This document shows, one piece after another, positions 31,135 through 46,652 of a stretch of 64,000 bases of DNA. Origin of the DNA: an uncultured Alphaproteobacteria bacterium (GTDB lineage Bacteria; Pseudomonadota; Alphaproteobacteria; HIMB59; GCA-002718135). The stretch spans positions 44,839-108,838 of the forward strand of contig CACNKX010000001.1 in the NCBI GenBank assembly GCA_902621165.1. Direction: 5' to 3'. Numbering within the stretch: position 1 is the first letter of the stretch; the number at the start of each line of letters is the position of its first letter. The position numbers were made by a program, and so were the translations under genes. The notes beneath the pieces are model-generated. The model had not been told where the DNA came from, ran no database searches, and saw only the letters and a list, made by a program, of their open reading frames with translations.

Positions 31135-32565
31135 TTATGAAATTATTTCTTTTAATAATGATTTTAAAGGATTTTCTTTCATTAAATTTAGATTTTTTTT
31201 GACTGCTGTTAACATTTCTTCTTTTTTATTTTCAGAAAGATTAAAAATATTTTTATTATTAATTATTTCTTCAAAAAAATTATCCTTATTATTTTTATAA
31301 ACACTGTAAAAGTATTCTTTATTTGCATCATCCAGTCTATTTTGATCTTCTTCAATAATTTGAAATAAGAAAAATAACCAAGAGGCTATGATAAATTGAA
31401 TATATTTAGCTACTCCTTTATTATTTTTGTAGGTATCAAGTATTCTTATAGGTATTTTTAAAGAACCATCCATAGCAATTCTTAACAATTTATCCTCTAT
31501 GTAAGTATTTTTAAATCTTTCTAAAATTTTCATTTTGTACTCATTAATATTAAAGTCATCTTTAATTTCTAAAGTGGGTAACACTTCTTGGTCTAAAAAA
31601 TTTAAAATAAAATTGTAAATATTTTTATCCTCTATTGCTTCATGAACATATGTATACCCACACAAATGACCAATGTATGCTAAAGCTGAGTGGGACGCAT
31701 TCAGTATTTTAAGTTTATTATTTTCATAAAATTTTACATCTTCGACAAATTTTATTTTATTATTTGATAAAATATTTTTTAGCTCATCATTATTTGATTG
31801 AATATACCAATCTCTATAAGGTTCAGTAACCACAATTGTATTATCATTATATGGCAAGTTAAAATATTCAGATTGTTTATTATTATTTGGAACAATTCCA
31901 TCAACCATAGATAATGGGAACTCAATATTATTATCAAACCAATCTAAACACTTTGGATATTTTTTTTCTATAAATTGTTTAACTAAATTTTTTAAAATTG
32001 TTCCATTTTCAGACAAATTATCGCAACTTAAAACGATTAATTTTTTTTTGTTTTTCTTATATCTTTCTATTATTCCAAAACTTAGATGACCTATCAAAGT
32101 TAATAACTCTTTATCCTCTAGATCATTAATAATTTGATTCGAAAAATTTAATTTTTTATTTTTATCAAAATGATATCCCTTTTCTGTAACAGTAATTGTA
32201 ATTAATTTAATTTTTTCAGATACAATTAAATTTCTTATTTCATTCTTGTGTTTTAAACCAAATAAAACTTTTTTAATTGGATTTAAAATATCAACTTTTT
32301 TGTAATTATTTGATATCCTTACCAAAGAATACAAGTAGTCTTGTAATTGCATTTTATTATTTGTTTCTTCAGACCTTAAATTGACCCCAATTATGGAAAT
32401 GTTTTTATTATTTTCTAATATTTCATGAATATATAGTGCTTGGTGAGCTCTATGAAAATTACCAATACCGAAATGAAGTATGCAATCTTCATTATTATTA
32501 ATATTATAACTTGGAAATGATTGTTCTTTTAAAAGATTTGTATTTATGTTTTTATTTAATTGCAT
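31135..32565 (-). CDS. uxuB: Mannitol-dehydrogenase-family oxidoreductase, probable fructuronate reductase (D-mannonate oxidoreductase)
   Basis: HFGIGNFHRAHQALY N-terminal motif, 476 aa, next to uxuA. Confidence 0.7.
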   Translation of the reverse strand: MQLNKNINTNLLKEQSFPSYNINNNEDCILHFGIGNFHRAHQALYIHEILENNKNISIIGVNLRSEETNNKMQLQDYLYSLVRISNNYKKVDILNPIKKVLFGLKHKNEIRNLIVSEKIKLITITVTEKGYHFDKNKKLNFSNQIINDLEDKELLTLIGHLSFGIIERYKKNKKKLIVLSCDNLSENGTILKNLVKQFIEKKYPKCLDWFDNNIEFPLSMVDGIVPNNNKQSEYFNLPYNDNTIVVTEPYRDWYIQSNNDELKNILSNNKIKFVEDVKFYENNKLKILNASHSALAYIGHLCGYTYVHEAIEDKNIYNFILNFLDQEVLPTLEIKDDFNINEYKMKILERFKNTYIEDKLLRIAMDGSLKIPIRILDTYKNNKGVAKYIQFIIASWLFFLFQIIEEDQNRLDDANKEYFYSVYKNNKDNFFEEIINNKNIFNLSENKKEEMLTAVKKNLNLMKENPLKSLLKEIIS

Positions 32566-32595: not shown

Positions 32596-33348
32596 ATGAT
32601 CAATAAAATATATAAAAGTGTGCTTATAACTGGTGCATCAAGTGGTATTGGCTTAGAAACACTTAAAAGATTTTTAAAAGAAAATGTAAAAGTTTATGCT
32701 CTTGATAAAAACGTTTCAATATTAGAAAAATTGAAAAAAAAACATAAATTTGAAATCATTCAAATTGATCTCTTTGACACGGATCAAATTTATAAAAAAC
32801 TCTCCAAAGTAAAAGTTGATATTGTAGTTTGTAATGCAGGCATTGGAAGAGGGGCTGAAGGTATATTAAAAGCGTCAAGGCAAGATATTGAATTATCTAC
32901 AAGATTAAATGTCGAGTCTTATCTTCATACTTTAAAAGCTATTGTTCCAGGAATGATAAAAAGAAGAAAAGGACATGTAGTTTTAATGGGGTCTCTTGCA
33001 GGTCTATACCCACAAATGAGTACTGTTTATGGCGGTCAAAAAGGTGCTATCCATAGAATCGCACAAAGCTTAAGAATTGAACTTAGCGGTTCAAGAGTTA
33101 AAGTTTCTGAAATATGTCCTGGAAGAACTAAAACAAATTTTGGTAATGCTGCATTTACAGATAAAAATAAAGCTAAAAAATTTATGTCTGGTTTTACTCT
33201 TCTCGAGCCAAGAGATATTGCTGATGCTATTATGTTTGCAGTAAGTGTTAGATGGCGAAGCAATATAAGCACTATTGAAATTTCTGGCACAGAACAATCC
33301 CCAGGCGGAGTGCCGATTATTCCAGTAAAAGATCCAATACTTTCATAA
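32596..33348 (+). CDS. Short-chain dehydrogenase/reductase (SDR)
   Basis: ITGASSGIG, CNAGIG and the catalytic YGGQKGA (YxxxK). Confidence 0.85.
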   Translation: MINKIYKSVLITGASSGIGLETLKRFLKENVKVYALDKNVSILEKLKKKHKFEIIQIDLFDTDQIYKKLSKVKVDIVVCNAGIGRGAEGILKASRQDIELSTRLNVESYLHTLKAIVPGMIKRRKGHVVLMGSLAGLYPQMSTVYGGQKGAIHRIAQSLRIELSGSRVKVSEICPGRTKTNFGNAAFTDKNKAKKFMSGFTLLEPRDIADAIMFAVSVRWRSNISTIEISGTEQSPGGVPIIPVKDPILS

Positions 33349-33389: not shown

Positions 33390-34493
33390 ATGGAAAAACC
33401 TGTAAGATATGGTGTTATTGGCATAGGAGGTATGGGAGCAAATCATGCTAAAAAATTACAAGAGAATAAAATAGAAAATGCTATCTTAGCCGCAGTTGCT
33501 GATTCAAATGTAGAATATAAAAATAAATATGAAAATATTCCTTTTTTTGAAAATACTGATAATTTTTTTAATAATAAAATTATAGATGCAGCAATCATTG
33601 CTACACCTCATAAATCGCACATAGATCTAGCGAAAAAAGCTCTCGAAAATAATATTAATGTTATAATTGAAAAACCCTTAGCAATAACTAGTAAAAAGTG
33701 TCGAGAATTTATTAATATATCACAAAATTTTAAAGCAATTTTTACTGTTATGCTCAATCAAAGAACTAATCCTGTTTATGTTAAGATAAAGGAACTAATT
33801 AATGGAAATGAATTAGGTAAAGTTCACCGTTTTCAATGGACAATAACTAATTGGTTTAGAACAAACTATTATTATCAGACGTCTAATTGGAAAGCTAAAT
33901 GGGAAAGTGAAGGTGGAGGTGTTTTAATAAATCAGAGTATTCACCAACTTGATTTGTGTCAGTGGTTATTTGGCATGCCTGATAGTGTATATACTGATTT
34001 GGGATTAGGTCGCTTTCATGAGATAGAAGTTGAAGATGAAGTAACTTCAATCTTTAAATATAAAAATGGATTAAAAGGTGTATTTATTACAACAACAGGT
34101 GAAGCACCGGGTGTAAATAGATTGGAAATTGCATCAGATAAGGGTTTAATTACAATTCAGGATAATAATGTTACATGGGAAAAAATAGATTCATCTACTG
34201 AATTTATTAAAAACTCTAAAACGCTTTTTGGGATGCCTAAAAAAGATAAAATTAATTTTAATTTTAAGGCTGATTTGGATCAACATATTGAGCATCAAAG
34301 ACTTATTCAAAACTTTACAAACTTCCTCCTAGGAAAAGAAAAACTGTTAGTGAATGGAAAAGATGGTTTAAATTCAGTTGAATTAATTAATGCGATGGTT
34401 CTATCGGGATTAGAGGAAAAAAAAATAGAGCTTCCTTTAGATGAAGTTAAATATGAACAAAAATTAGAAGAAATGATAAGTAAATCAAGATGA
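33390..34493 (+). CDS. Gfo/Idh/MocA-family oxidoreductase
   Basis: N-terminal Rossmann fold YGVIGIGGMGANH plus the EKPLA motif. Confidence 0.85.
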   Translation: MEKPVRYGVIGIGGMGANHAKKLQENKIENAILAAVADSNVEYKNKYENIPFFENTDNFFNNKIIDAAIIATPHKSHIDLAKKALENNINVIIEKPLAITSKKCREFINISQNFKAIFTVMLNQRTNPVYVKIKELINGNELGKVHRFQWTITNWFRTNYYYQTSNWKAKWESEGGGVLINQSIHQLDLCQWLFGMPDSVYTDLGLGRFHEIEVEDEVTSIFKYKNGLKGVFITTTGEAPGVNRLEIASDKGLITIQDNNVTWEKIDSSTEFIKNSKTLFGMPKKDKINFNFKADLDQHIEHQRLIQNFTNFLLGKEKLLVNGKDGLNSVELINAMVLSGLEEKKIELPLDEVKYEQKLEEMISKSR

Positions 34494-35260
34494 AAATTAA
34501 TCAAATTGCAGTTACACTTTATACCATTAGAGATTTTTGCCAAAATGAAAAAGATTTATTTGAAAGTCTAAAAAAAATCAAAAATATTGGATATAGTAGC
34601 ATTCAAATCAGTGGTGTTGGTTTAATTAATCCTAAAACAATAAAAAGCATGTGTGAAGATTTGAGTTTAGTTATATGCGCTACACATGAACCAAATGAAC
34701 AAATTATAAATAATACTGATGAAGTTATTAATAAGCTAAATATTTTTAATTGCGAATATTCAGCTCTTCCTTATCCATTAAATGTAGATATGAAAAACTT
34801 AGAAGAAATTGATAAATTCATAGAAGATATAAATATCGCTGGCTCAAAGTTTCAGGCAGAAGGAAAAGTGCTATGCTACCATAATCATGCACTTGAATTC
34901 CAAAAAATTCAAAATGAAATAATTTTAGATAGAATTTATAAAAATACAGATAGTAGATTTATACAAGGAGAGCCAGATATTTATTGGATACAAAAAGGTG
35001 GTCAAGATCCATTAATGTGGTGTAAAAAATTAGACCAACGAATGCCATTATTACATTTAAAAGATTTTATAATGATAAATGATCAAGAAAGTTTTTTTGC
35101 AGAGGTTGGCTTAGGTAATTTAGATATCAAAAATATTGTTAAAACAGCAACAGATTCAGGTTGTAAGTGGTTTATTGTTGAACAAGATGAATGTAATGGC
35201 GATCCTTTTGATTCACTTCTGATTAGCTATAATAATTTAGTAAAATATGCAGTTACTTAA
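34490..35260 (+). CDS. Xylose-isomerase-like TIM-barrel protein (sugar phosphate isomerase/epimerase family)
   Basis: 256 aa. Pattern YSSIQISG ... CATHEP ... YHNHALEF ... LHLKD ... VEQD is typical of AP_endonuc_2/IolE/LgdB-type barrels. Overlaps the upstream Gfo gene by 4 nt. Confidence 0.75.
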   Translation: MKINQIAVTLYTIRDFCQNEKDLFESLKKIKNIGYSSIQISGVGLINPKTIKSMCEDLSLVICATHEPNEQIINNTDEVINKLNIFNCEYSALPYPLNVDMKNLEEIDKFIEDINIAGSKFQAEGKVLCYHNHALEFQKIQNEIILDRIYKNTDSRFIQGEPDIYWIQKGGQDPLMWCKKLDQRMPLLHLKDFIMINDQESFFAEVGLGNLDIKNIVKTATDSGCKWFIVEQDECNGDPFDSLLISYNNLVKYAVT

Positions 35261-36464
35261 GAAAAAAACTTTTTGCGTTTTGATTTAATAAATTATTAAT
35301 ATCCCTTTCTATTATAAATTTTGATAACTCAAAATTTTTCTTAGAAAGATCTTCATAATATTCATATAAAATTTCATTTAAGATATTTTTGAAATGAGAC
35401 CATTTATATATAAGTTGATCTGTAACTCTTGCATCGGAATGCTGAGGTATAAATGCAAGACCTAGCATATCAATCCTCATTTTTAGAACAATTTTTATAA
35501 TACTTGGCTGGTTCATAAACCACCAAAAACCAAATATTTTTAAATTAGGATGTTTACGAGCTAAGACAGTTAATTCGTGCTGATCATTTAAAGATAAACA
35601 AGTTACAAGAAATTTGTTTTCTGGAAAAGAATTACATAATTTACTTAGTTCTTTGAGATTAATATCACCAATCCCGTCTCCAGCTAGACCAAAACTACTA
35701 TTTACAGCTCGTTTAACACCTAACATTAAAGACAATGGGATATTTTTTTTATTTAACCATGATAAAATTAATTTCCAAAGAGGATCATTTAAGATTTCTT
35801 TAAAATTATCTGAATTTGCTGAAATAGCTGCATACACTGGATTTGATACTAAAAAACAACTATCTAAATAATTTATTACAATATCATCTGCTTTTTGATT
35901 TATCTTAGTCTGATTTTTTGCAACCTCAGTTGCTTGGGAATTGTTAATAATTAAATCATCCAGTCTTAATGATGATTGAAATATATTTCTATCCCAATCA
36001 TTATCTTTATATAAATTCCATTCATCAATATCAAATGGATTATTTGTCATTACTAAAGAAGAAACGTTTGATAATTTTAAAATTTTTTCATCTGTAAGAG
36101 ATTTATTTTCATATTCATTGTTTAGTTCTTGAAAAGTTTTATTATTATAATTAATATCTAATTTTTGAAGTACAGTTAGCACTCCTTTACACGCTTCAGA
36201 AATTGGTGTTCTTTTTTGAAATAATTCTTCCCATATAAGTTTTGCTTTATTTAAGTCATCCAGAGAGTAAAACTTTTCTGCACTTATATTTGCATTGGTT
36301 AATAATTCTGCAATTAAATAATGATAGTTTAATAAATTAATAAAACCAGAAAGAGAATGACTTTTAAAGGCAGATGGAAATAAATGCGTATGAATATCAA
36401 AAATTTTTGTATTATTAATAACGTCTTCTAAAGTATTGGATAATTCCTGATTAGACATATTCAT
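35253..36464 (-). CDS. Divergent short uronate-isomerase-like amidohydrolase (UxaC-like)
   Basis: N-terminal metal motif IFDIHTHLFP (compare DYHCHL). The C-terminal HSDARVTDQLIYKWSHFKNILNEIL resembles UxaC TDSRSFLSYTRHEYFRRIL. About 400 aa versus about 470 for canonical UxaC. I prefer the ATG at 36464; the track uses the GTG at 36467. Confidence 0.55.
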   Translation of the reverse strand: MNMSNQELSNTLEDVINNTKIFDIHTHLFPSAFKSHSLSGFINLLNYHYLIAELLTNANISAEKFYSLDDLNKAKLIWEELFQKRTPISEACKGVLTVLQKLDINYNNKTFQELNNEYENKSLTDEKILKLSNVSSLVMTNNPFDIDEWNLYKDNDWDRNIFQSSLRLDDLIINNSQATEVAKNQTKINQKADDIVINYLDSCFLVSNPVYAAISANSDNFKEILNDPLWKLILSWLNKKNIPLSLMLGVKRAVNSSFGLAGDGIGDINLKELSKLCNSFPENKFLVTCLSLNDQHELTVLARKHPNLKIFGFWWFMNQPSIIKIVLKMRIDMLGLAFIPQHSDARVTDQLIYKWSHFKNILNEILYEYYEDLSKKNFELSKFIIERDINNLLNQNAKSFFLK

Positions 36465-37483
36465 CACTTAATATTGCCAAGCCTAATCGCATTTTTTTGA
36501 GCTTTGATTGCCAATTCCATAACTTTTAAACAATGTGATTGATCCATTGCAGTACTAGTTCTGTTTACAACATCACCCATTAGTCTCTCAAAATATGTTA
36601 GGGGTTCTTTAGAAGCATTTTTATATTCATATTTTTTATTATTAACTAAAAAAAGGTGATCTGTACCCTCTCTACCAACAAGATCGACATACTTTCTTAA
36701 TTCAATGTATCCTTTTGTACCTAAAATGGTCAATCTGCCATCACCCCAATTAGGTAAAGCATCAGGGGTGTACCAGTCTACCCTAATGTAACCTCTACCC
36801 TTATCTCCATGAATTAAAATTTCACCAAAATCTTCAAACTTATTATGTTCAGGATTTGAAAAATTACCTGTTGAAGAATTTATAATTTCTACATTTTTAG
36901 ATCCAGTAAAAAATAAAAACTGATCTATTTGATGTGAAGCAATATCACATAAAATACCACCATATTGATCGTAATCAAAAAACCAATCAGGTCTAGTTTG
37001 AATATTCAATCGGTGAGGTCCCATTCCAATTGTTTGAACAACATCTCCAATTTCGCCCGATTGAATTAAATCATAGGCAGCTTGAACTGAAGGGACTTCA
37101 AATCTTTCAGAAAAATCAATTGAAAATATTTTTCCTGTTTTTTTTGTAGTATTTTCAATTTCTTTAAGCTGTTCTAAAGTTGTAAAACCAGGTTTATCTA
37201 ACATTACATCTTTCCCAGCATTCATGCACTCAATAGCTAAAGCTGCTCTTTTAACTGGAATGTCTGCTATCAATACTAATTCAATTTCTTTATTTTTTAA
37301 TAAATCCTCTTTATCTGTAAAGCGGGGTATATCAGGATGTTTTTCATTAAAATCTTTCGTAATATTATTATCCGTTTCATTCCACCAGCCAACACATTCA
37401 CATCCCAAATTTAACATGCCATTTAATTGTCCAAAAATGTGTCTATGCTCAACACCCATTGCAGCAACTTTAATTTTTCTCAT
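36464..37483 (-). CDS. Gfo/Idh/MocA-family oxidoreductase
   Basis: MRKIKVAAMGVEHRH, LDKPG, and the C-terminal alpha/beta domain. Confidence 0.8.
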   Translation of the reverse strand: MRKIKVAAMGVEHRHIFGQLNGMLNLGCECVGWWNETDNNITKDFNEKHPDIPRFTDKEDLLKNKEIELVLIADIPVKRAALAIECMNAGKDVMLDKPGFTTLEQLKEIENTTKKTGKIFSIDFSERFEVPSVQAAYDLIQSGEIGDVVQTIGMGPHRLNIQTRPDWFFDYDQYGGILCDIASHQIDQFLFFTGSKNVEIINSSTGNFSNPEHNKFEDFGEILIHGDKGRGYIRVDWYTPDALPNWGDGRLTILGTKGYIELRKYVDLVGREGTDHLFLVNNKKYEYKNASKEPLTYFERLMGDVVNRTSTAMDQSHCLKVMELAIKAQKNAIRLGNIK

Positions 37484-37494
37484 GATTAAATATT

Positions 37495-38523
37495 TTAGTC
37501 CATTGTAATTAGTATATTTTTTTTAGATGATTCTATCATTGCATCAATTAGATAATGAACTTTCAATGCTTCTTTTCCAGTAATTTCAAATTTTTTATTT
37601 GTATTAATTGATTTTGCAAAATTAAGTATAAGATCTTTATGCCAATCAAATGGAAAAGCCATAGGATCAGCACTACCGCCAGTTCCAGATTCCTCTCCAA
37701 ACTCTTCTTTTTTACCGTTCCTCCAATTAATAATAAGTGTTCCTGCTTCAAGTTTGACTGTTGCATTTTTACAATGAAGAACAATTGACTCTGATGAGCC
37801 TGGAAAAACGCTCGTTGAAGCGAATAAAGATGCAATTACGCTATTTTTAAATTTAATACCACCAGTTACAAAATTTTCTGACTCCATTTTATGAAACTTT
37901 GTAGTTTCCGCCATTACCATCACGTCTTTAACATCCCCTAAAAGACTGATAGCAAGATCAAGTGTATGAATAGCTTGGCTTATAAGAACTCCTCCACCAT
38001 CTCTCTTGTATGTTCCTCTACCTGGTTCATCATAATAGGACTGTTCTCGCCACCATGGAATATTGATTTGAGCTGAAAAAATTTGACCAAATTTATTCTC
38101 ATTTATTAATGATTTTAATTTAATTGAGGATTTTCTAAATCTGTGTTGAAAAACTATACCGAGGTTAACTTTATTATTTTCACAAATTGAAACTATACTT
38201 TTTGCATTTTCTAAAGTTCGTTCAATTGGTTTTTCCATTAAGATATGTTTTCCATGTTTACTAAATTGCTCTACTAGTTCTAAGCGTTGATTTGGAGGGG
38301 TGATGATATCCACCATTTCAACTTCAGGATTATCATAAATGCTATCAATGTCTTGAAATGAATTAAAATTATAATTTTTGGAAAAATTTTCTCTTTTTTC
38401 CTTATTTCGAGAAAAAACTCCAACTACATTAATATCATCCTTTAATTCATTTAAAGCCAAGGCATGGGGTTTTGCAGCCATACCCGTACCAATAATGGCA
38501 AGTCCAATTTTTTTAGAACTCAT
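37495..38523 (-). CDS. Gfo/Idh/MocA-family oxidoreductase
   Basis: IGLAIIGTGMAAKPH, MEKPIE and GGGVLISQAIHTLD. Confidence 0.85.
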   Translation of the reverse strand: MSSKKIGLAIIGTGMAAKPHALALNELKDDINVVGVFSRNKEKRENFSKNYNFNSFQDIDSIYDNPEVEMVDIITPPNQRLELVEQFSKHGKHILMEKPIERTLENAKSIVSICENNKVNLGIVFQHRFRKSSIKLKSLINENKFGQIFSAQINIPWWREQSYYDEPGRGTYKRDGGGVLISQAIHTLDLAISLLGDVKDVMVMAETTKFHKMESENFVTGGIKFKNSVIASLFASTSVFPGSSESIVLHCKNATVKLEAGTLIINWRNGKKEEFGEESGTGGSADPMAFPFDWHKDLILNFAKSINTNKKFEITGKEALKVHYLIDAMIESSKKNILITMD

Positions 38524-39605
38524 TAATTATTTTTTTTTGATACAGACATGCCATTCTCTTCAAAAAGATGAACTGAATCTCTTTTAAAACGAAGATATAA
38601 TTCTTCTCCCTTATTAATTTTATATTGCCCGGTATGATGAACAATTAATTGTTTTATTCCTTCACCCTGACAATAAAAGTAAGTTTCACTTCCGAGCTGT
38701 TCAGTAAAATCAACATGTACTTTCAAATCTGAATTTTGCTGTTCACAAACTTCTATATGTTCAGGCCTTATCCCAAGAGAATAAGGTGTATTATTTTGTA
38801 AATTTTTATGATTTGTTTGTAAATTCAATGCATCTGAAACTAAATTAAATGAACCAGACTTATCAATTGCATTAACTTTTATAAAATTCATTTTTGGAGA
38901 TCCAATGAAACCAGCTACAAAAATATCACTGGGATTATTATATAAATCAAGTGGTGCTCCTGCTTGTGCAACATAACCATTATTTAAAACTACTATTTGA
39001 TCAGCTAATGTCATTGCTTCAACTTGATCATGTGTAACATAAATCATTGTACCACCAATTTTTTCATGAAGTGCTGATAATTCTTTTCTCATTGTTACTC
39101 TTAACTCAGCATCAAGATTAGATAAGGGCTCATCAAACAAAAAGGCTTTTGGATCTCTAACTATTGCTCTTCCAATAGCTACTCTTTGTCTTTGACCACC
39201 AGAAAGTGCTTTTGGTTTTCTTTGAAGATACTCTTCAATTTGTAAAAGTTTAGCTGCGCTATTAACTTTTTCTTCAATTGTTTTTTTATCAATTTTTAAA
39301 TTTTCCAATGCAAAGGCCATATTTTTAAAAACAGACATGTGAGGATACAAAGCATATGATTGAAAAACCATAGCTAAACCTCTTTCTGAAGCGGGTATAT
39401 TACTTACTTCATTTCCGTCGATTAAAATTTCTCCTGATGTAATTCTTTCTAATCCAGCAATAATTCTTAATAATGTTGACTTACCACATCCAGAGGGGCC
39501 GACTAAAACTAGAAATTTTCCACTTTCAACTTTCAAATCAACTCCATGAATTACTTCTGTTTGATCATAACTTTTAAAAATGTCCTTTAATATGATTTCA
39601 GTCAT
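38523..39605 (-). CDS. Carbohydrate ABC transporter ATP-binding protein (MalK/UgpC-like, CUT1)
   Basis: Walker A GPSGCGKST, signature LSGGQRQRVAIGRA, and a C-terminal TOBE-like regulatory domain. 360 aa. Confidence 0.9.
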   Translation of the reverse strand: MTEIILKDIFKSYDQTEVIHGVDLKVESGKFLVLVGPSGCGKSTLLRIIAGLERITSGEILIDGNEVSNIPASERGLAMVFQSYALYPHMSVFKNMAFALENLKIDKKTIEEKVNSAAKLLQIEEYLQRKPKALSGGQRQRVAIGRAIVRDPKAFLFDEPLSNLDAELRVTMRKELSALHEKIGGTMIYVTHDQVEAMTLADQIVVLNNGYVAQAGAPLDLYNNPSDIFVAGFIGSPKMNFIKVNAIDKSGSFNLVSDALNLQTNHKNLQNNTPYSLGIRPEHIEVCEQQNSDLKVHVDFTEQLGSETYFYCQGEGIKQLIVHHTGQYKINKGEELYLRFKRDSVHLFEENGMSVSKKNN

Positions 39606-40615
39606 CTATCTCTTCTCATTATTGCTTTGTCAGGGTCAGCATGTTGTAAGTGTATAGGCGGCATCCCATTCAAGATTTTTTTTATATCATTCATCATCAT
39701 AACTCTTATATTTTTATATGAATAATCTAAAGCACCTGCAACATGTGAAGTAAATAAAATATTAGATTTTTTTCTAAAATTTGAATCTGCTGGCACAGGC
39801 TCGACTGGATATACATCTATAGCTGCTCTAAAATATTCATTTTCAGCAAGTTCAATAAATTCGTCAAAATCAACAACCTCCGCTCTACTGACTAGAATCA
39901 CTGAACTATTTTTTTTAATTAATTTTAATTTATCTTTACTAATAAATCCTTCATTTTCAGTAGTAACTCCAGCTAATATGAATATAAATTTATTGTTAGA
40001 TAATAAATCATCAATCGATACAGGGTTTACACCCTGGCTTTCTAAGTATTCATTAGATAACCATGGATCAAATACTGAAATTTTACAGTTAAATGGTTTT
40101 AACAAAGGAAGTAAACTTTTTGCTAAATTTCCAAACCCAATTAACCCAACATTTGAGTTAAAAAGTGTATAAGCAAATTTATTTTCTTTAATTCCATATT
40201 GCTCTTCAGAATTTAAAAATTTTTTATAAACTCCCAAAACATTTCTAGAAAGTGAGATTGCGTAACCTATACAAGCTTCAGCAACAGCAGGAGCCATGGC
40301 AGGTGCAGCTGATAAAACATAAATACCTCTTCTATGTGCTTCATGATAATCAATATTCGGTTCCCAATTTGCTTTGACATTTATAATTGCTTTAATTTTT
40401 TTTGATTTATCTAAACGTTCTTTAGGCATAGCAGTCTGTCCAACTAATATTTCAATTTCTTCAATATTTTTATCTACAAGTTCATCAGGAGCTCGACTAC
40501 CAAAGTGATAGATTAAATTAGATATTTTTTCTAATTCAGTCTTAACATCATTGGTAAAAACCATTTCTTCATTTCTTGGATAAGGATCAAAAAAAATTAG
40601 AGGTTTGTCTTGCAT
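39602..40615 (-). CDS. D-isomer-specific 2-hydroxyacid dehydrogenase family protein
   Basis: NAD motif VGLIGFGNLAKS plus the C-terminal FTSHVAG. I prefer the ATG at 40615 (MQDKPLIFF), a TAATG overlap with the permease stop. The longer track ORF (to 40726) would overlap the permease by 112 nt. Confidence 0.8.
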   Translation of the reverse strand: MQDKPLIFFDPYPRNEEMVFTNDVKTELEKISNLIYHFGSRAPDELVDKNIEEIEILVGQTAMPKERLDKSKKIKAIINVKANWEPNIDYHEAHRRGIYVLSAAPAMAPAVAEACIGYAISLSRNVLGVYKKFLNSEEQYGIKENKFAYTLFNSNVGLIGFGNLAKSLLPLLKPFNCKISVFDPWLSNEYLESQGVNPVSIDDLLSNNKFIFILAGVTTENEGFISKDKLKLIKKNSSVILVSRAEVVDFDEFIELAENEYFRAAIDVYPVEPVPADSNFRKKSNILFTSHVAGALDYSYKNIRVMMMNDIKKILNGMPPIHLQHADPDKAIMRRDR

Positions 40616-41679
40616 TATTTCATACCTGTACTTGCTATTCCTGTTGTTATAAATTTTTGTAAGTAAGCAAATATAATTGCTATAGGTAATAAAGTTACCA
40701 TAGTCATTGATAATACATAATTCCACTGACTAGTAAGTTCTCCATGAAATGCGTTTAATCCAATTTGCAATGTATAAACTTCACTTTTTGATAAAACTAT
40801 TAAAGGCCATAAGAAATCATTCCATCTCCACATTATGGAAAAAATTGCTAAAACTGCAATAGCAGGTATAGATAAAGGTAGAACAACTCGCCAATAAATT
40901 GCCCATTCACTTGCGTGATCCATTCTTGCTGCTTCTATAAGCTCTCTAGGCAATGTAAGCATATATTGACGAAGTAAAAAAACTCCTGTTGGTGTTGCGG
41001 CACCTGGAAGAATTACACCCCATAATGAATTTATCATTCCAAAGTTTGCAACAACATAAAAAACTGGAACCAAAATTATCGTTAATGGAATTAATAATGT
41101 ACCTATAACAAAAACAAGTGCAAAATTTTTCCCTCTAAACTCATATATAGAAAGTGCATATGCTGCCATTGAATTTATTATTAACGTTATTATTGTTGCT
41201 ACAACAGTAATGAAAGTTGAGTTTTTGAAATAAAGTAAAAAATCATACTTTCTTAAAGGATCAACATAGTTTTGCCACTGAATTTTAAATTCTCTAATTT
41301 TTTCTCTTTTATCAATCGGTACTTTTACTGTTTCTCCTGGGTTTAGAGGATCAACCATTTTAGCATTAATTCCAATTCTTTTAATTTGTGCTAACTGCTT
41401 TACTGAACCATCTTCTTGTGTCACATTAAAAATTGGTAAGGGTTTATCGTATCCTTCAACATCAACTTGAATTTGAGAAAGTGGTAAAATTGTTGGAGGA
41501 TATTCTTGTATACCTGCTAATGTCTTTAATGAAGATAATCCTAACCACACAACAGGACCAAACATTAAAAGAACACCTAGAAATAAATAAAAATAAGAAA
41601 AATAATCTGTCCAATGATATTTATTTTTATATCTTTTTTTTGTAGCAATTTTTATTATTCTTGAAGTTGTTTCAGACAT
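40615..41679 (-). CDS. Carbohydrate ABC transporter permease (CUT1, MalG/UgpE-like)
   Basis: Polytopic. EAA-loop region ELIEAARMDHASEWAIYWRVVLPL. Confidence 0.88.
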   Translation of the reverse strand: MSETTSRIIKIATKKRYKNKYHWTDYFSYFYLFLGVLLMFGPVVWLGLSSLKTLAGIQEYPPTILPLSQIQVDVEGYDKPLPIFNVTQEDGSVKQLAQIKRIGINAKMVDPLNPGETVKVPIDKREKIREFKIQWQNYVDPLRKYDFLLYFKNSTFITVVATIITLIINSMAAYALSIYEFRGKNFALVFVIGTLLIPLTIILVPVFYVVANFGMINSLWGVILPGAATPTGVFLLRQYMLTLPRELIEAARMDHASEWAIYWRVVLPLSIPAIAVLAIFSIMWRWNDFLWPLIVLSKSEVYTLQIGLNAFHGELTSQWNYVLSMTMVTLLPIAIIFAYLQKFITTGIASTGMK

Positions 41680-41680
41680 A

Positions 41681-42712
41681 TTAGATTTCTTGATGTTTAC
41701 TTTCTTTATTTCGACTGAAATATAATTGCATAAGTGTTAAAAATAAAAGTACAACACCGAGAACCATAGATGCGGCGGCTGCAAGACCAAAATTTTGAAC
41801 AGATCCAGATGAAGCAAATCCTGTGGTAAAAATATATTGAACAATCAATGATGTAGATGTTCCAGGCCCTCCACCAGTTAAAACATATATTTCATCAAAT
41901 GTTTGAACACCTTTTATTGAGGCAAGAATAAATACAACTAATAAATTTGGCATTAGAAGAGGTAGAGTTATTCGAAAGAAAATTCTTTCTCGGCTAGTTC
42001 CATCCATTTCGGCTGCCTCATATAAATTTGGAGGTATTGCTTGAAGACCCGCTAATACAATCAGAGTGTAAAAACCCATATGGGCCCATATTGATACAAA
42101 GATTACAGATGCCATAGCCCATGATGGATCCGTTAAAAATGATACTTTGTCTCCACCATAAGATTCAATTATAGCATTGAAAGCTCCATTTTTTAGCAGT
42201 ATCCATTGCCAAATCAAACCAACAACAACTGGTGACAATAAAACAGGGAAAAAAAATACCGATCTAAAAAAGCCTCTGCCAATAATTTTCTTATTTAATA
42301 TCACGGCAGTCAAAACCGAAAAGAAAATCATTAAGCCAACTTGAAAAACAACAAAGAATATAGTGTTATAAACTCCTCTCCAAAAAAAATCTTCTGTACA
42401 TGTATTTGGGTTTAAATAACTCTCACAATCAAATAACTGATCATATTGTTTTGTTGTAGGAAGTTCTCTCTCAGCAAATAACAGTTCGTCACCAGATGAT
42501 AATGAAAAGAAAAAGTTTGCACCAAGAGGGATTATTACAAATAATCCAAAAAAAATTAAATTTGGAAGCAAAAAAATATATGGCATATTTCTTACACCAA
42601 TAATTTTTTGAATTGGCCACATGATTAAATCAATAGCATGCATTAAAAATGCAAAGGGAATGTTTAAAATTCTAAGGAAAAAAATTTTTGTTTGATTTCT
42701 AATATTTTCCAT
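41681..42712 (-). CDS. Carbohydrate ABC transporter permease (CUT1, MalF/UgpA-like)
   Basis: EAA loop YEAAEMDGTSRERIFFRITLPLL. 343 aa. Confidence 0.88.
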   Translation of the reverse strand: MENIRNQTKIFFLRILNIPFAFLMHAIDLIMWPIQKIIGVRNMPYIFLLPNLIFFGLFVIIPLGANFFFSLSSGDELLFAERELPTTKQYDQLFDCESYLNPNTCTEDFFWRGVYNTIFFVVFQVGLMIFFSVLTAVILNKKIIGRGFFRSVFFFPVLLSPVVVGLIWQWILLKNGAFNAIIESYGGDKVSFLTDPSWAMASVIFVSIWAHMGFYTLIVLAGLQAIPPNLYEAAEMDGTSRERIFFRITLPLLMPNLLVVFILASIKGVQTFDEIYVLTGGGPGTSTSLIVQYIFTTGFASSGSVQNFGLAAAASMVLGVVLLFLTLMQLYFSRNKESKHQEI

Positions 42713-42723
42713 TAAATGATTTC

Positions 42724-42753
42724 GAAAAAAAGCTGCTCAAAATGAGCAGCTTT
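42724..42753 (-). terminator. Intrinsic terminator/attenuator hairpin between the binding-protein and permease genes
   Basis: Minus strand reads AAAGCTGCTC-ATTTT-GAGCAGCTTT followed by TTTTTC, 24 nt after the binding-protein stop. Confidence 0.7.
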
Positions 42754-42777
42754 ATATTATTATTATTTTGGATGTAA

Positions 42778-44058
42778 TTATCCGCCGTATTTTTCTTTAA
42801 GTTGTTTTTCAACATCTTCATCCATACGCGTCCAAGCTTCTTCCATTGTCATTTCACCAACAATAGCTTGTCCTAATCTTGAGATAATTGCGTTAAACAT
42901 TATACGGTTGTCAACGTGTGCCTGAAGATCAAAAGCGACTTGATCAATAGTTGGCACTGCGCCAGCAAAAGTGTTTAATGCATGTTTTGCGTTTGGATCA
43001 TCAGTTTGATAGTCAACTTGTAGATCTAAGTGTCCAGGGATAGCAAGAACTTGACCAATAAAACTACTTAGTTGTTCTTTACTAGAAAGATAATCCATTA
43101 CCTTTCCAACAGCTGGATTAGCATTGAATGCTAATAGTGCATTTCCACCTGGCATTCCAGTACATGCAGCAGGACCACATGGAGCTGGTACAGCCCACCA
43201 ATCAAAATCATCTCCTACTTCATTTGCAAATCTTCCAATTTGCCATGAACCACTCATCATGAAAACTACCTCAGCAGCATTCCACCAATCATTTGGAGCA
43301 TGATATTTAGATCCTGAAACTGATCCCCAAAGATCTTTACTCATTGTACCTGCTTGGTGCCAGTCATAAAGCATTTGAGTCATAGCTTTTAATCCATCAT
43401 CAACTAATTTTGGATCACCATTTGAATCAAAATATTTCGCACCCATAGAAATCGCAGGGCCTGATACACGGTGACCTGATCTATCCCAAGCCATTGGTAT
43501 AGGAGTACCTGTTTTTTCTGCTACTTCAATTGAAACTGCTGCCCATTCTTCCCAAGTTGCACCAGGGCCTAATAGATCTACACCAGCTTGTTCAAATAGA
43601 GTTTTATTTACATATGGACCAGTAACGGTCATTGTAGAATGGAAACCATGAATTGAAGTTGTGTCTCCAGGCTTACGATACCAATTTAAAAAAGGACCGA
43701 AGCTTTTTTCATAGTAACTTGGATCAGCTACATAAGGCGTAATATCAGCATAATATTTGTTTAATCCACCAAGATCAGTAACACGAGCAATGTCAGGACC
43801 TTCACCAGCAGCAAGCTGGATAGGTAGAGTGTTCATTATTGCATCATATGGTACAATATCTAAAATTACATTTATATCTGGATTAGCTGCATTAAACTCA
43901 TCAATTTGTGCTGCAATTGGCACATTTTCTTTGTCTCCATCTCCATACCACATAATACGTACATCTGTGGCAGCAAAAGAAACTGCAGAAATTAAAGTTA
44001 ATGAGAATGAAACTAAAGCTACAGATATTGCTTTTAAAATAAACTTAAAGTTCATCAT
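42778..44058 (-). CDS. Extracellular solute-binding protein family 1 (CUT1 carbohydrate-binding protein)
   Basis: Signal peptide ...LTLISAVSFAA. 426 aa, typical SBP_bac_1 size and composition. GGAGGA SD upstream. Visibly higher G+C than flanking genes. Confidence 0.85.
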   Translation of the reverse strand: MMNFKFILKAISVALVSFSLTLISAVSFAATDVRIMWYGDGDKENVPIAAQIDEFNAANPDINVILDIVPYDAIMNTLPIQLAAGEGPDIARVTDLGGLNKYYADITPYVADPSYYEKSFGPFLNWYRKPGDTTSIHGFHSTMTVTGPYVNKTLFEQAGVDLLGPGATWEEWAAVSIEVAEKTGTPIPMAWDRSGHRVSGPAISMGAKYFDSNGDPKLVDDGLKAMTQMLYDWHQAGTMSKDLWGSVSGSKYHAPNDWWNAAEVVFMMSGSWQIGRFANEVGDDFDWWAVPAPCGPAACTGMPGGNALLAFNANPAVGKVMDYLSSKEQLSSFIGQVLAIPGHLDLQVDYQTDDPNAKHALNTFAGAVPTIDQVAFDLQAHVDNRIMFNAIISRLGQAIVGEMTMEEAWTRMDEDVEKQLKEKYGG

Positions 44059-44193: not shown

Positions 44194-45567
44194 ATGATTG
44201 GTTATTTAGCATTAGCAAGAAATACATTTGATATAAATTATGCTTTAGATAATAAAAAAAAGTTTGAAAAATTTATAGATATTTTAGACATTAAATACTC
44301 ACATTTTAAAGAATTAATTACAGATGATGAAACAGGAAAAAAAGCTATTAGATATTTTAAAAAACTAAATTGTAGCAAATATATTATTGCTCAAACAACT
44401 TTCACTGATGCAAAATTTATAACAAGTTTTGCTAAAACATTTAATAAACCAATACATTTAATAAGTTTTAAAGAGCCGAGAACAGGTAAACGGTTAAGAT
44501 TGAACTCTTTATGTGGTGTAAATCTTGCTATGCATTCTTTAGTTAAATTAAAATGTAAGCCAGAATTTTCAATATTTATTAATAATAAATTATTCGAAAT
44601 GGAAAAAATTAATAATTTTTTAAAAAATAAAAAAATTTTAAAAAATAATACATTGAAAAAAATAAAAAATTCTAAAAAGAAAGATGACATTATTTTTTCA
44701 AAAAAAAAGAATTTAGGACTTGTTGGAAAAAGACCAGATGGATTTTTTACCTGTGATTATGATAATAGAGAAATAGAAAAAAAATTAAATTATAGTCTTA
44801 AGAAAATTAAATTAGAAACTTTGTTTAAAATTTCTAAAAATGTTAGCACTAAAGATATTTCAAAAACTAAAAATCAAATAAAAAAAGATTTGAAATCAGT
44901 CTCTAAGTTGAATGCAAATGAATTAAATAAAAGTATTTCAATTTTTCATGGGTTAGAAAAAATAAAAAATGATAACAAAATTGATACTTTTGCAATTAAG
45001 TGTTGGCCTGAAATGTTTACTCAATTTGGATGTGCATCATGTGGTCCAATGGCTATGATGAATGAAAAGGGAGTTAGCAGTGCATGTGAAGCTGATGTAT
45101 TAGGAAGTATAAGTTGCGATATTTTAAATAAGATAAATAACAGACCGTCACTTTTAGTAGATGTTGTTGATTGTGATCCCAAAACTGATACTTTAGTTTT
45201 TTGGCATTGTGGATTAGCTCCAATTAGTATGGCAAAAAAAAATACAGCAAGTGCAACTGTACATTCTAATAGAAGGAAAGCATTGCTACATGATTTTGCA
45301 TTTAGACCTGGAAAAATAACAATATTTAGAGTTTCAAAATCAGAAAACAAATTAAAATTTATTGTTATTAAAGGTGAAGTTTTAGATAAAAAAAATTCAT
45401 TTTCAGGTACTTCGGGTGTTGTGAGATTTCAAACAAATACCTATCAAAAATTAGTTAGATTATTCACGTCTGGTGTCGAACATCATCTAGCATTCACATA
45501 TGGAGATGTATATTCAGAAATAAAAAAACTAAGTGCGCAATTAAATATTCCAATTTACACAACATGA
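44194..45567 (+). CDS. L-fucose/D-arabinose isomerase family protein (FucI-like) with a K/N-rich insertion
   Basis: The C-terminal half, KCWPEMF...CGPMAMMNEKGVSSACEADVLGSIS...VFWHCG...GVEHHLAFTYGD, is typical of the Fucose_iso/Arabinose_iso fold. A low-complexity KN-rich segment spans about aa 125-175. Confidence 0.65.
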   Translation: MIGYLALARNTFDINYALDNKKKFEKFIDILDIKYSHFKELITDDETGKKAIRYFKKLNCSKYIIAQTTFTDAKFITSFAKTFNKPIHLISFKEPRTGKRLRLNSLCGVNLAMHSLVKLKCKPEFSIFINNKLFEMEKINNFLKNKKILKNNTLKKIKNSKKKDDIIFSKKKNLGLVGKRPDGFFTCDYDNREIEKKLNYSLKKIKLETLFKISKNVSTKDISKTKNQIKKDLKSVSKLNANELNKSISIFHGLEKIKNDNKIDTFAIKCWPEMFTQFGCASCGPMAMMNEKGVSSACEADVLGSISCDILNKINNRPSLLVDVVDCDPKTDTLVFWHCGLAPISMAKKNTASATVHSNRRKALLHDFAFRPGKITIFRVSKSENKLKFIVIKGEVLDKKNSFSGTSGVVRFQTNTYQKLVRLFTSGVEHHLAFTYGDVYSEIKKLSAQLNIPIYTT

Positions 45568-46652
45568 AAACGAAAATTAAATATGGAGTTGTTGGAAGTG
45601 GACTAATGGGTTGTGAACATATTTCAAATATTAATCTTATAGATTCAGCTGAAGTAGTTGCCATCTCAGACAGTAATGAAAATTCAATAAATAAAGCTAA
45701 AAATCTTATCTCAAATGATATTAAAATCTATTCAAATAATAATGAAATTTTTAAAAATAATGAAGTGGATGCTTTTATTATTTCGACTCCCAATTTTACC
45801 CATCATGAAATTATTAAAGAAGCGTTAAAAACAAAAAAACATTTATTAATTGAAAAACCCTTATGTACAAAATTAGAAGATTGTCTTGAAATTAAAAAAT
45901 TATCAACTTCATATCCATCAGTAATATGGGTGGCTATGGAGTATAGGTACATGCCACCTGTTCAAAAAATGATCCAAGAAATAGATAGTAATAAAATTGG
46001 TAAGCTTAAAATGCTTTCAATTCGTGAACATAGATTTCCATTTCTCAAAAAAGTAGATGATTGGAATAGATTCCAAATAAACACCGGTGGAACATTAGTA
46101 GAAAAATGCTGTCATTTTTTTGATTTAATGCGCCTAATTACAAATAGTGAAGTTACACAAGTATATGCAAGTGGTGACCAAAGTGTAAATCATCTTAATG
46201 AAAATTATAATGGAAAAGTTCCTGATATATTGGACAATGCATTTGTAATTTTAGATTTTAAAAATGGAATAAGAAGTTCTTTAGAACTTTGTATGTTTGC
46301 AGAAAATTCAGAAATGCAAGAAGAGCTATGTGTTGTTGGAGATAAGGGTAAAATAGAAACAGGTGTGCCAGCTGATGCATCTGGAAAAAACTCTTCAGAA
46401 GTTAGAATAGGTTTAAGAAACTCTAAAAACGCAATTAAAGAATTAGTTGAGGTAGATAAAAAAATTTTATCAGCTGGGCAACATCATGGATCGACTTATT
46501 ATCAACATTTAGAATTTATTAAAGCAATTAATAATAATTTAAAACCACAAGTTTCTATAAACGATGGTCTTCATGCAGTGGCTATTGGAGAAGCAGCAGA
46601 GAAATCAATAAAAGAAAATCGTGTGGTTAAGATGAGTGAGTTTAATCGTTAA
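45564..46652 (+). CDS. Gfo/Idh/MocA-family oxidoreductase
   Basis: YGVVGSGLMGCEH and IEKPLC. ATGA overlap with the isomerase gene. Confidence 0.85.
   Translation: MKTKIKYGVVGSGLMGCEHISNINLIDSAEVVAISDSNENSINKAKNLISNDIKIYSNNNEIFKNNEVDAFIISTPNFTHHEIIKEALKTKKHLLIEKPLCTKLEDCLEIKKLSTSYPSVIWVAMEYRYMPPVQKMIQEIDSNKIGKLKMLSIREHRFPFLKKVDDWNRFQINTGGTLVEKCCHFFDLMRLITNSEVTQVYASGDQSVNHLNENYNGKVPDILDNAFVILDFKNGIRSSLELCMFAENSEMQEELCVVGDKGKIETGVPADASGKNSSEVRIGLRNSKNAIKELVEVDKKILSAGQHHGSTYYQHLEFIKAINNNLKPQVSINDGLHAVAIGEAAEKSIKENRVVKMSEFNR

Follow-up and report, generated by a model that had tools for sequence, protein, structure and literature searches.

A CUT1 importer locus of a streamlined marine alphaproteobacterium with a predicted hydrolase-free, 3-keto route for hexuronic-acid glycosides

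Background

How does a bacterium open an imported glycoside when no glycoside hydrolase is encoded next to the importer? This question is raised by a locus in a 64,000-nucleotide stretch of DNA from an uncultured alphaproteobacterium (GenBank assembly GCA_902621165.1, contig CACNKX010000001.1, positions 44,839 to 108,838; hereafter the window), in which the genes of a CUT1-type importer are found together with three genes of the Gfo/Idh/MocA family (here GfoA, GfoB and GfoC) and a gene encoding a xylose-isomerase-like TIM barrel. A first-pass annotation of this DNA had proposed oxidative (3-keto) glycoside cleavage, with a uronate-containing glycoside as a plausible substrate. Following up on this proposal, we arrive at a probability of roughly 0.65 that the locus serves the importer-coupled, cytoplasmic and hydrolase-free use of a hexuronic-acid glycoside, most likely a glucuronide, via the 3-keto route, the substrate itself being predicted from sequence comparison.

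Stepwise 3-keto glycoside cleavage was established in 2023-2024 in gut and soil bacteria. In its sole characterised glucuronide version, P2B11, the enzymes Oxido1, Oxido2, Iso1 and Iso2 hydrolyse both alpha- and beta-glucuronides through a 3-keto intermediate, the full rate requires two barrels, and neither a transporter nor a regulator is found near the cluster (Nasseri et al., bioRxiv 10.1101/2024.03.25.586180).

Results and discussion

A glucuronide 3-dehydrogenase homologue overlaps an OGE-like barrel

The best match of GfoA among solved structures is the P2B11 glucuronide 3-dehydrogenase (PDB 8tdi, E 1.9e-67, 231 bits), and the remaining solved Gfo/Idh/MocA proteins score at most 94 bits each. 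GfoA combines domain PF01408 with PF22725/PF02894, and its N-terminal NAD (nicotinamide adenine dinucleotide) site GVIGIGGMG fits the GxGxxG pattern. In a HMMER alignment the P2B11-Oxido1 pocket residues Asn147, Trp179, Arg181, Tyr185, Asn205 and His209 correspond to GfoA Asn123, Trp155, Arg157, Tyr161, Asn181 and His185, six residues that are invariant among 15 diverse homologues with identities down to 43%. GfoA scores far below the NCBIfam equivalog cut-offs for IolG, LgdA, BT_2158 and BT_2159. It falls outside GH188 as well, being a distant relative of SqgA (E 1e-14; PDB 8qc2/8qc3, PMC10755693), an enzyme that shares the Gfo/Idh/MocA fold and a C3-oxidation-based, non-Koshland cleavage of glycosides but performs all steps in a single active site, whereas GfoA has a separate lyase partner. 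GfoA is thus a homologue of the P2B11-Oxido1 type and a predicted cytoplasmic glycoside (glucuronide) 3-dehydrogenase.

That partner is the TIM barrel, whose best PDB matches are AtOGE (8bvk, E 1.3e-20, 77 bits, a moderate similarity) followed by the AL1/BT1 lyases (8tcs/8tcd, E 1e-16). AtOGE of A. tumefaciens is a Mn2+-dependent 3-keto-O-glycoside beta-eliminase with the metal ligands His132, Asp163, His189 and Glu233 and the catalytic residue His134 (PMC10628242). His131/His133, Asp163, His189 and Glu231 of the window barrel align with AtOGE His132/His134, Asp163, His189 and Glu233, and its Glu161/Asp163/Trp166 match AL1/BT1 too, including the Trp three residues past the Asp, so that the barrel carries the full His-x-His, Asp, His, Glu constellation of the 3-keto-O-glycoside 1,2-lyases. 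Like AtOGE and AL1, it is a short TIM barrel of about 256 residues without a lid domain and has a C3-oxidising enzyme as its partner. The setting differs, for in A. tumefaciens a flavoenzyme of the periplasm acts as oxidant, and AL1 is a secreted protein, whereas the barrel of the window has a cytoplasmic, NAD-dependent Gfo protein as its partner. The pairing is also a genomic one, as the barrel gene overlaps GfoA by 4 nucleotides and the two types of gene occur together in 17 of 55 loci across phyla. All this points to an OGE-like 3-keto-glycoside 1,2-lyase, predicted to depend on Mn2+/Co2+.

Compared with the P2B11 cluster, the locus thus has in GfoA the nearest solved relative of Oxido1 with six active-site residues kept, next to a xylose-isomerase-like barrel and a second Gfo partner, with a cytoplasmic location and an implied uronate or 6-anionic substrate in both. 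Differences are the numbers of components (two barrels and two Gfo proteins there, one barrel and three Gfo proteins here), the link here with the operon of a CUT1 importer and with a complete downstream route for uronates, and the organism, a human-gut Gram-positive bacterium there and a streamlined marine alphaproteobacterium here. A near-identical copy of P2B11-Oxido1, sought among 80 related loci as a proxy for the four-gene cluster, was not found.

The host genome (1.42 Mb) encodes one further barrel of this kind, on contig C8 (28841-35953; loci L004 and L142), where a LacI regulator gene is divergent from a unit of SBP_bac_1 binding protein, two permeases, UgpC/MalK-type ATPase, OGE-like barrel and Gfo dehydrogenase. 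The C8 barrel keeps the signature YHNH / ELD..W / H.KD / LEHD, and the C8 dehydrogenase has LgdA as its top NCBIfam match (77 bits). The chemistry of this hydrolase-free unit is probably the same, with another glycoside, which may be neutral, as its substrate.

Organisation of the locus

All genes named in the first-pass annotation are present, as listed in Table 1: the Gfo genes starting at 33390, 36464 and 37495 and the barrel at 34490-35260 were recovered with Pfam, and a 2-hydroxyacid dehydrogenase (HADH) is indeed nested in the importer operon, its start now being placed most likely at ATG 40615 (337 residues) rather than at GTG 40726. The grouping of the three Gfo proteins has to be revised, as they are not equivalent and GfoB is devoid of the GxGxxG loop.

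The window has a G+C content of about 29% and forms a single long carbohydrate-use island, in which the locus consists of two convergent transcription units. The minus-strand unit runs from the binding protein through a 65-nucleotide spacer, in which the hairpin with its T-run is located, two permeases, HADH, ATPase, GfoC and GfoB to a 404-residue isomerase, and apart from that spacer its genes overlap or are separated by at most 11 nucleotides. The plus-strand unit contains a short-chain dehydrogenase/reductase (SDR), GfoA and the 256-residue barrel, and genes for a mannitol-dehydrogenase-family protein, an Ldh_2-family protein and uxuA lie further upstream. Where the two units meet, the barrel gene overlaps the isomerase gene convergently by 8 nucleotides. 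A promoter and terminator scan yielded fewer promoter-like sites than shuffled sequences and was uninformative in this AT-rich DNA.

Table 1. Position, strand and supporting matches of the features of the locus and of related genes in the window
Feature	Position	Strand	Match or basis
KDPG (2-keto-3-deoxy-6-phosphogluconate) aldolase Eda	17916-18479	-	PF01081; best NCBIfam match 129 bits
KdgK-like kinase	18466-19362	-	best NCBIfam match KdgK, 199 bits
UxuA mannonate dehydratase	28907-30094	+	NF003027, TIGR00695
Ldh_2-family dehydrogenase, optional member	30084-31133	-	PF02615
Mannitol-dehydrogenase-family protein (long-chain), putative fructuronate reductase (UxuB-like)	31135-32565	-	PF01232/PF08125
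SDR oxidoreductase, first gene of the SDR-GfoA-TIM unit, optional member	32596-33348	+	PF00106
GfoA, Gfo/Idh/MocA glycoside 3-dehydrogenase homologue, cytoplasmic	33390-34493	+	PDB 8tdi
Predicted OGE-like Mn/Co-dependent 3-keto-glycoside 1,2-lyase, xylose-isomerase-like TIM barrel	34490-35260	+	PDB 8bvk
BH0493-type uronate isomerase, amidohydrolase superfamily, last gene of the importer operon	35253-36467	-	PDB 2q08/2pnk/2qee
GfoB, Gfo/Idh/MocA fold, without GxGxxG loop	36464-37483	-	PDB 3u3x/2p2s
GfoC, Gfo/Idh/MocA dehydrogenase, intact Rossmann motif	37495-38523	-	Pfam, NCBIfam, PDB 3q2i/3q2k
MalK/UgpC-type ABC ATPase	38523-39605	-	NF008653, 472 bits (cut-off 432); ABC_tran, TOBE_2 and OB_MalK
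D-2-hydroxyacid dehydrogenase (HADH), nested in the importer operon	39602-40615	-	PF02826/PF00389
CUT1 permease, MalG/UgpE-like	40615-41679	-	PF00528; top NCBIfam match UgpE
CUT1 permease, MalF/UgpA-like	41681-42712	-	PF00528; top NCBIfam match UgpA
Hairpin with T-run, attenuator-like, directly 3' of the binding-protein gene	42729-42753	-	11-bp stem followed by TTTTTTT on the minus strand
Family-1 periplasmic solute-binding protein (SBP)	42778-44058	-	PF01547; signal peptide

Absence of a hydrolase in the locus and the proposed mechanism

That the importer stands without a glycoside hydrolase alongside, as had been noted before, was borne out by scanning all open reading frames of at least 120 residues between 27.7 and 63.8 kb against Pfam, which revealed no classical glycoside hydrolase. 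The nearest one to the locus is a GH29 fucosidase (19695-21158) in a separate fucose operon. The check for a dedicated hydrolase elsewhere, also advised in the first-pass annotation, was equally negative, with none of GH2, GH67, GH88/105 or GH115 found in the 83%-complete genome. The possibility that a GH4 gene on contig C8 encodes an overlooked alpha-glucuronidase was rejected, since its product is a MelA-type alpha-galactosidase with its own importer.

This GH4 gene (C8 44470-45830; L145 3465-4826) scores 599 bits against a cut-off of 486 and is divergent from a third CUT1 importer. When GH188, GH4 and the two units of Gfo dehydrogenase plus lyase are counted, most of the glycoside-opening enzymes seen in the genome are NAD-dependent, GH29 being the sole classical hydrolase encountered.

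In the mechanism that we propose, the binding protein together with the permeases and ATPase, which are clearly of the CUT1 class, would import a small glycoside. Since a signal peptide is present in the binding protein and lacking in the enzymes, import would come first and cleavage would take place in the cytoplasm. GfoA, with bound NAD+, would then oxidise the C3 hydroxyl to give the 3-keto-glycoside, from which the barrel lyase would form a glycal by elimination, two steps for which homology and active-site residues argue. Hydration of the glycal and reduction of the 3-keto group would release free glucuronate, through the lyase, GfoA-NADH and/or GfoB/GfoC; the allocation of hydration and reduction to particular proteins is the weakest part of the scheme. 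The BH0493-type isomerase would convert glucuronate to fructuronate, after which members of the UxuB-like, UxuA, KdgK and Eda families would lead to pyruvate and glyceraldehyde-3-phosphate. Overall, the hydrolysis would be redox-neutral, and alpha as well as beta anomers should be accepted if the system behaves like P2B11.

A BH0493-type uronate isomerase and the downstream route

The 404-residue protein encoded at the end of the importer operon has no Pfam match and matches the NCBIfam glucuronate isomerase family weakly and at its C-terminus (NF002794, 22.6 bits against a cut-off of 387). The earlier description of this gene as a UxaC-like isomerase therefore holds for the uronate isomerase part and not for canonical UxaC: across residues 5-398 the protein resembles BH0493 of Bacillus (Halalkalibacterium) halodurans (PDB 2q08/2pnk/2qee, E 5e-89), and its HxH metal motif is present as His26-x-His28 (DIHTHL, residues 24-29). 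Its homology to the B. halodurans enzyme is clear, extends over the full length and includes the N-terminal HxH, and on this basis it is assigned as a uronate isomerase of the BH0493 type. Here it stands in for canonical UxaC, for which no PF02614 match was found anywhere in the genome. Unlike BH0493, its gene ends an importer operon and convergently overlaps a lyase gene. A sample of 400 other Pseudomonadota genomes did not yield the isomerase; homologues at about 65% identity are abundant in marine metagenomes, some of them labelled Pelagibacterales.

In one genus relative (G054, contig C5, 27671-28881) the isomerase gene was matched in two pieces and is broken up by a total of four in-frame TAA stops, which reflects either gene decay or an assembly error.

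For the subsequent steps, UxuA exceeds the curated cut-offs (NF003027, 447 bits against 191; TIGR00695, 396 bits against 200). The UxuB-like enzyme, whose gene is syntenic in genus relatives, scores 199 bits as fructuronate reductase, 183 as tagaturonate reductase and, highest, 243 as D-arabinitol 4-dehydrogenase. The Ldh_2-family enzyme matches AllD (213 bits) and sulfolactate dehydrogenase (212 bits), in both cases under the cut-off, and neither the SDR gene nor the Ldh_2 gene occurs at L135 and L136, two syntenic loci. With a BH0493-type isomerase, UxuB-like enzyme, UxuA, KdgK and Eda all encoded in the window, cytoplasmic glucuronate would have a complete path to pyruvate and glyceraldehyde-3-phosphate, in which the reductase step is assigned tentatively. 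The isomerase, UxuA, KdgK and Eda lend weight to the uronate-containing substrate suggested by the first reading of the DNA.

Conservation of the locus and exchange of the glycoside-opening cassette

A scan of species-representative genomes with GfoA gave 595 confirmed relatives, of which 80 loci were kept. Two GORG-type single-cell genomes, likewise of an uncultured Alphaproteobacteria bacterium, contain the same locus at 94-100% protein identity. The order UxuA-(Ldh2)-UxuB-like-(SDR)-GfoA-lyase / isomerase-GfoB-GfoC-ATPase-HADH-permeases-SBP is syntenic in genus relatives in which GfoA is 55-73% identical, and because synteny is held at this divergence the gene order is not due to chance. 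The GTDB order of the host comprises 187 species in two families. The host is a free-living marine bacterium of the SAR11-like/AEGEAN-169 type whose size and G+C content suit SAR11 and AEGEAN-169/HIMB59 alike, with the HIMB59/AEGEAN-169 group as the likelier affiliation. Within the genus GfoA occurs in 30 of 104 genomes, the isomerase in 42 and SqgA in 67, and all 30 GfoA-bearing genomes contain the isomerase; in the sister family GfoA was found in none of 71 genomes.

Other GfoA loci, at 37-45% identity, belong to Verrucomicrobiota, Kiritimatiellia, Planctomycetota, Bacilli, Clostridia and others. Among the 55 non-self GfoA loci whose flanks each reach 2.5 kb or more, a barrel homologue lies within 2.5 kb of GfoA in 17, a GfoB homologue in 20, both in six and either one in 31. 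Bacillus niameyensis shows the arrangement AraC-barrel-GfoA-GfoB, and in a metagenome-assembled genome of the Polyangiales a LacI regulator gene, a PL14 lyase gene and an alginate-lyase-family gene are followed by GfoA-GfoB-uronate isomerase, which is an independent link to polyuronates.

Other members of the genus carry alternative cassettes at the identical slot, between the sulfoquinovose cluster and the SDR-UxuB-like-Ldh2-UxuA block. The window represents variant A, with SBP-permeases-HADH-ATPase-GfoC-GfoB-isomerase plus lyase-GfoA. Variant B (L146 and L148) consists of SBP (37%)-permeases-ATPase-793-residue protein-isomerase (55%), and variant C (L147) of SBP (41%)-permeases-ATPase-GfoC-GfoB-third Gfo-HADH-isomerase (59%). 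What varies is thus the glycoside-opening part, whereas the mannonate genes, the uronate isomerase and a CUT1 importer are invariant. The 793-residue protein of variant B (L146 10783-13164 and L148 10417-12798, genomes G039 and G087) is a GH31 glycoside hydrolase, and since it stands at the slot of the Gfo sets, the Gfo genes occupy the slot of a glycosidase. Of the contextual evidence for a glycosidase role of the window's Gfo genes on a hexuronate-yielding substrate, this cassette swap is the strongest.

The GH31 gene shares a transcription unit with the BH0493-type isomerase gene, and its product is about as far from E. coli YihQ (24% identity, 111 bits) as from YicI (22%, 132 bits). Of the residues that we take to be the sulfonate triad of YihQ (Arg301/Trp304/Tyr508), it has an Arg aligned with Arg301 and Phe at the positions of Trp304 and Tyr508. 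With 24% identity and one of three signature residues aligned, it was rejected as a YihQ-type sulfoquinovosidase, and it is a candidate enzyme for a 6-carboxy (uronide) substrate, an activity that to our knowledge has not been described in GH31.

The importer and its conserved partners

The importer has all the hallmarks of CUT1, namely a family-1 SBP, two MalF/G-type permeases and a MalK-type ATPase with TOBE domain. The signal peptide of the binding protein ends ...AVSFA/ATD. The nearest folds to its AlphaFold2 model (predicted local distance difference test score 92) are all di- or oligosaccharide binders of the CUT1 type, at 14-20% identity, and its family is small, with 109 representatives at E<=1e-30. 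Across lineages it is GfoB, GfoC and HADH, and not GfoA and the barrel, that are conserved alongside the importer: the order SBP-permease-permease-(HADH)-ATPase-GfoC-GfoB is kept in larger Alphaproteobacteria at 45-66% identity, and in these importer loci no close GfoA, lyase or BH0493-type isomerase was found. Two of them, L119 and L126, carry mannitol-dehydrogenase-family genes, and L126 also contains UxuA. A xylose-isomerase-like barrel 3' of GfoB in L119 was considered as a second lyase; it has no similarity to the window barrel and was not counted. We infer that the GfoA-lyase-isomerase block was acquired and came to stand with an importer-GfoC-GfoB operon of alphaproteobacterial origin.

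GfoB, GfoC and the nested dehydrogenase

GfoB matches the uncharacterised structural-genomics entries 3u3x/2p2s (E 1e-95). In its family a conserved G-x-[D/E]-H-x-H-I motif, seen in the window gene and in homologues from eight loci (L011, L028, L036, L069, L119, L121, L125 and L126), replaces the Rossmann GxGxxG loop, which suggests that the family has lost dinucleotide binding and possibly has a metal site; GfoB may accordingly not be a dehydrogenase. Homologues are frequent neighbours of GfoA-type dehydrogenases and occur, at 50-58% identity, in importer operons of other Alphaproteobacteria. A literature search on 3u3x/2p2s returned nothing relevant and no published function for GfoB, and an Atlas search with GfoB gave generic names only.

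GfoC matches PDB 3q2i/3q2k (E 1e-24), which we take to be WlbA, a UDP-N-acetylglucosaminuronic acid (UDP-GlcNAcA) 3-dehydrogenase, and it is kept beside GfoB in the importer operons of L119, L126 and L147. HADH, which scores below every NCBIfam cut-off, has the same operon position in L119-L121 (47-51% identity) and is also part of variant C. By analogy, variant C, which is without an OGE-type lyase, raises the thought that some Gfo proteins may be self-contained NAD-dependent glycosidases like GH109 and GH188.

By tblastn the whole genome contains at least 14 Gfo/Idh/MocA paralogues, six of them in the window, a high density for a streamlined genome.

Weighing of alternative readings

One competing reading concerns the neighbouring sulfoquinovose-type cluster (SftI-like isomerase, SqgA homologue, PfkB kinase and ComDE-like decarboxylase), which lies across a 135-nucleotide divergent region in every genus member examined. 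The importer and the Gfo and barrel proteins might serve this cluster, with sulfoquinovosyl glycerol or another 6-anionic glucoside as cargo and the isomerase acting on sulfoquinovose. The Arg of the variant-B GH31 at the position of YihQ Arg301, presumably a sulfonate-recognising residue, would fit, but the Phe residues at the Trp304 and Tyr508 positions would not. The P2B11 enzymes do cleave sulfoquinovosides and 6-sulfo/6-phospho glucosides too, yet slowly (bioRxiv 10.1101/2024.03.25.586180). Moreover, the cluster has its own Opp-type importer in the operon, its own GH188 glycosidase (GfoD, 45564-46652, a homologue of the NAD-dependent sulfoquinovosidase SqgA with E 7e-107 to 8qc2/8qc3) and its own isomerase (the FucI-like neighbour at 44194-45567, with SftI sulfoquinovose isomerase as best match at 286 bits, under the cut-off). 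As SqgA is found in more genomes of the genus than the isomerase or GfoA, sulfoquinovose use needs no such cassette, and outside the genus the importer accompanies HADH, GfoC and GfoB, at two loci with mannitol-dehydrogenase-family/UxuA genes, and never sulfoquinovose genes. Among the fold neighbours of the binding protein SmoF appears only at rank 36. Despite the constant adjacency within the genus, we thus consider a sulfoquinovose function of the locus unlikely.

Nor does the combination of genes by itself imply that a bond is cleaved. A non-glycosidic sugar or sugar acid, such as a free uronate epimer, could be interconverted to glucuronate by the Gfo proteins, the barrel and HADH in a YcjQRS- or IolI-like manner, for keto-sugar epimerases and isomerases exist among the xylose-isomerase-like barrels, and the E. 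coli ycjM-V cluster (ycjNOPQRSV), which likewise combines a CUT1 importer with a Gfo 3-dehydrogenase (YcjS) and a xylose-isomerase-like barrel (YcjR), epimerises instead of cleaving. In favour of such a role are also the importer-GfoC-GfoB-HADH sets without an OGE-type lyase in other lineages and the L119 barrel that is unrelated to the window lyase. The window barrel, however, is unrelated to YcjR (20 bits, E 0.04) and related to proven lyases with the His-x-His motif, GfoA scores 69 bits against YcjS (21% identity) compared with 231 against 8tdi, and YcjN reaches 20 bits against the binding protein. The presence of a GH31 glycosidase in the variant-B slot implies a glycosidic substrate, and the nearest folds of the binding protein are all oligosaccharide binders, so that epimerisation without cleavage appears a rather improbable role. 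Much less probable still, and largely refuted, is an inositol (IolG/IolE), levoglucosan (LgdA/B/C) or C-glycoside (DgpA/B/C) locus, although inositol had been the main alternative of the first-pass annotation. Weak similarity exists at the family level (IolG 102 bits for GfoA, IolE 29 bits for the barrel, LgdA 56-76 bits, DgpA E 1e-12 to 1e-17), but these scores are far under the cut-offs of 355 (TIGR04380, IolG), 290 (TIGR04379, IolE) and 650 bits (LgdA), the three Gfo proteins scoring 56, 41 and 76 bits against the LgdA equivalog and thus falling outside it. A separate contig (C3) carries the true iolD (771 bits), together with a CUT2 importer and a Gfo gene of its own, CUT1 is not the usual type of inositol importer, and neither the inositol nor the levoglucosan route needs a uronate isomerase or UxuA.

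The neighbours of iolD at that locus (C3 112000-131999; L092) encode two CUT2-type binding proteins, a permease and an ATPase, besides a Gfo protein and a pair of 2-hydroxyacid dehydrogenases; of this pair, one is the closest paralogue (38%) of the window HADH. Among the ten iolD neighbours scanned, none was iolE, iolB or iolC.

Several observations weigh against the use of a hexuronic-acid glycoside via the 3-keto route. The functions of all proteins of the locus rest on sequence comparison, and the genome is 83% complete, so that the absence of a hydrolase is not proven. There is a single barrel in the locus compared with two in P2B11, and the sole barrel paralogue of the genome, that of the other importer locus on contig C8, is 25% identical. 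GfoA is about 40-47% identical to P2B11-Oxido1 (47/101 in the core, counted by hand) and its specificity may differ at this distance. The UxuB-like mannitol-dehydrogenase-family enzyme is under every curated cut-off, and the fold neighbours of the binding protein point to no uronate ligand and do not discriminate between uronate and sulfoquinovose. Moreover, the importer-HADH-GfoC-GfoB sets of other Alphaproteobacteria and variant C occur without the GfoA/OGE-type pair, and therefore the cargo of the importer can be processed without this lyase. To these points the constant adjacency of the sulfoquinovose-type cluster has to be added.

Conclusions

In this streamlined marine alphaproteobacterium it is the architecture of the locus that is new, not the chemistry: the system is coupled to an importer, cytoplasmic, and extended by a BH0493-type isomerase and the enzymes of the Ashwell route. 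For P2B11 neither host nor transporter nor downstream pathway is known, and the locus supplies all three as a conserved unit. A 3-keto uronide route has not yet been described in marine plankton and is overlooked by standard enzyme surveys; in the papers searched on SAR11-like and AEGEAN-169 groups we found no mention of glucuronate or uronate use, and neither the SAR11 binding-protein paper nor the marine SqgA paper covers this locus. The GH31 enzyme in the same slot of sister genomes offers an unusually clean comparative test.

The 1.4-Mb genome encodes two CUT1 importers each with a Gfo dehydrogenase and an OGE-like lyase, one GH188, one GH4 and at least 14 Gfo paralogues. More speculatively, and as a possibility that we hold with some doubt, NAD-dependent oxidation and elimination might be the main way in which this abundant streamlined marine lineage opens imported glycosides, with GfoB as a non-dehydrogenase component (hydratase or metal-dependent lyase); if so, surveys based on CAZy would systematically underestimate glycan use by oligotrophic bacterioplankton. 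If the 3-keto route proposed for this locus is true, uronic-acid glycosides would join the substrates of oligotrophic bacterioplankton, and glycoside-hydrolase counts would miss part of their carbohydrate metabolism.

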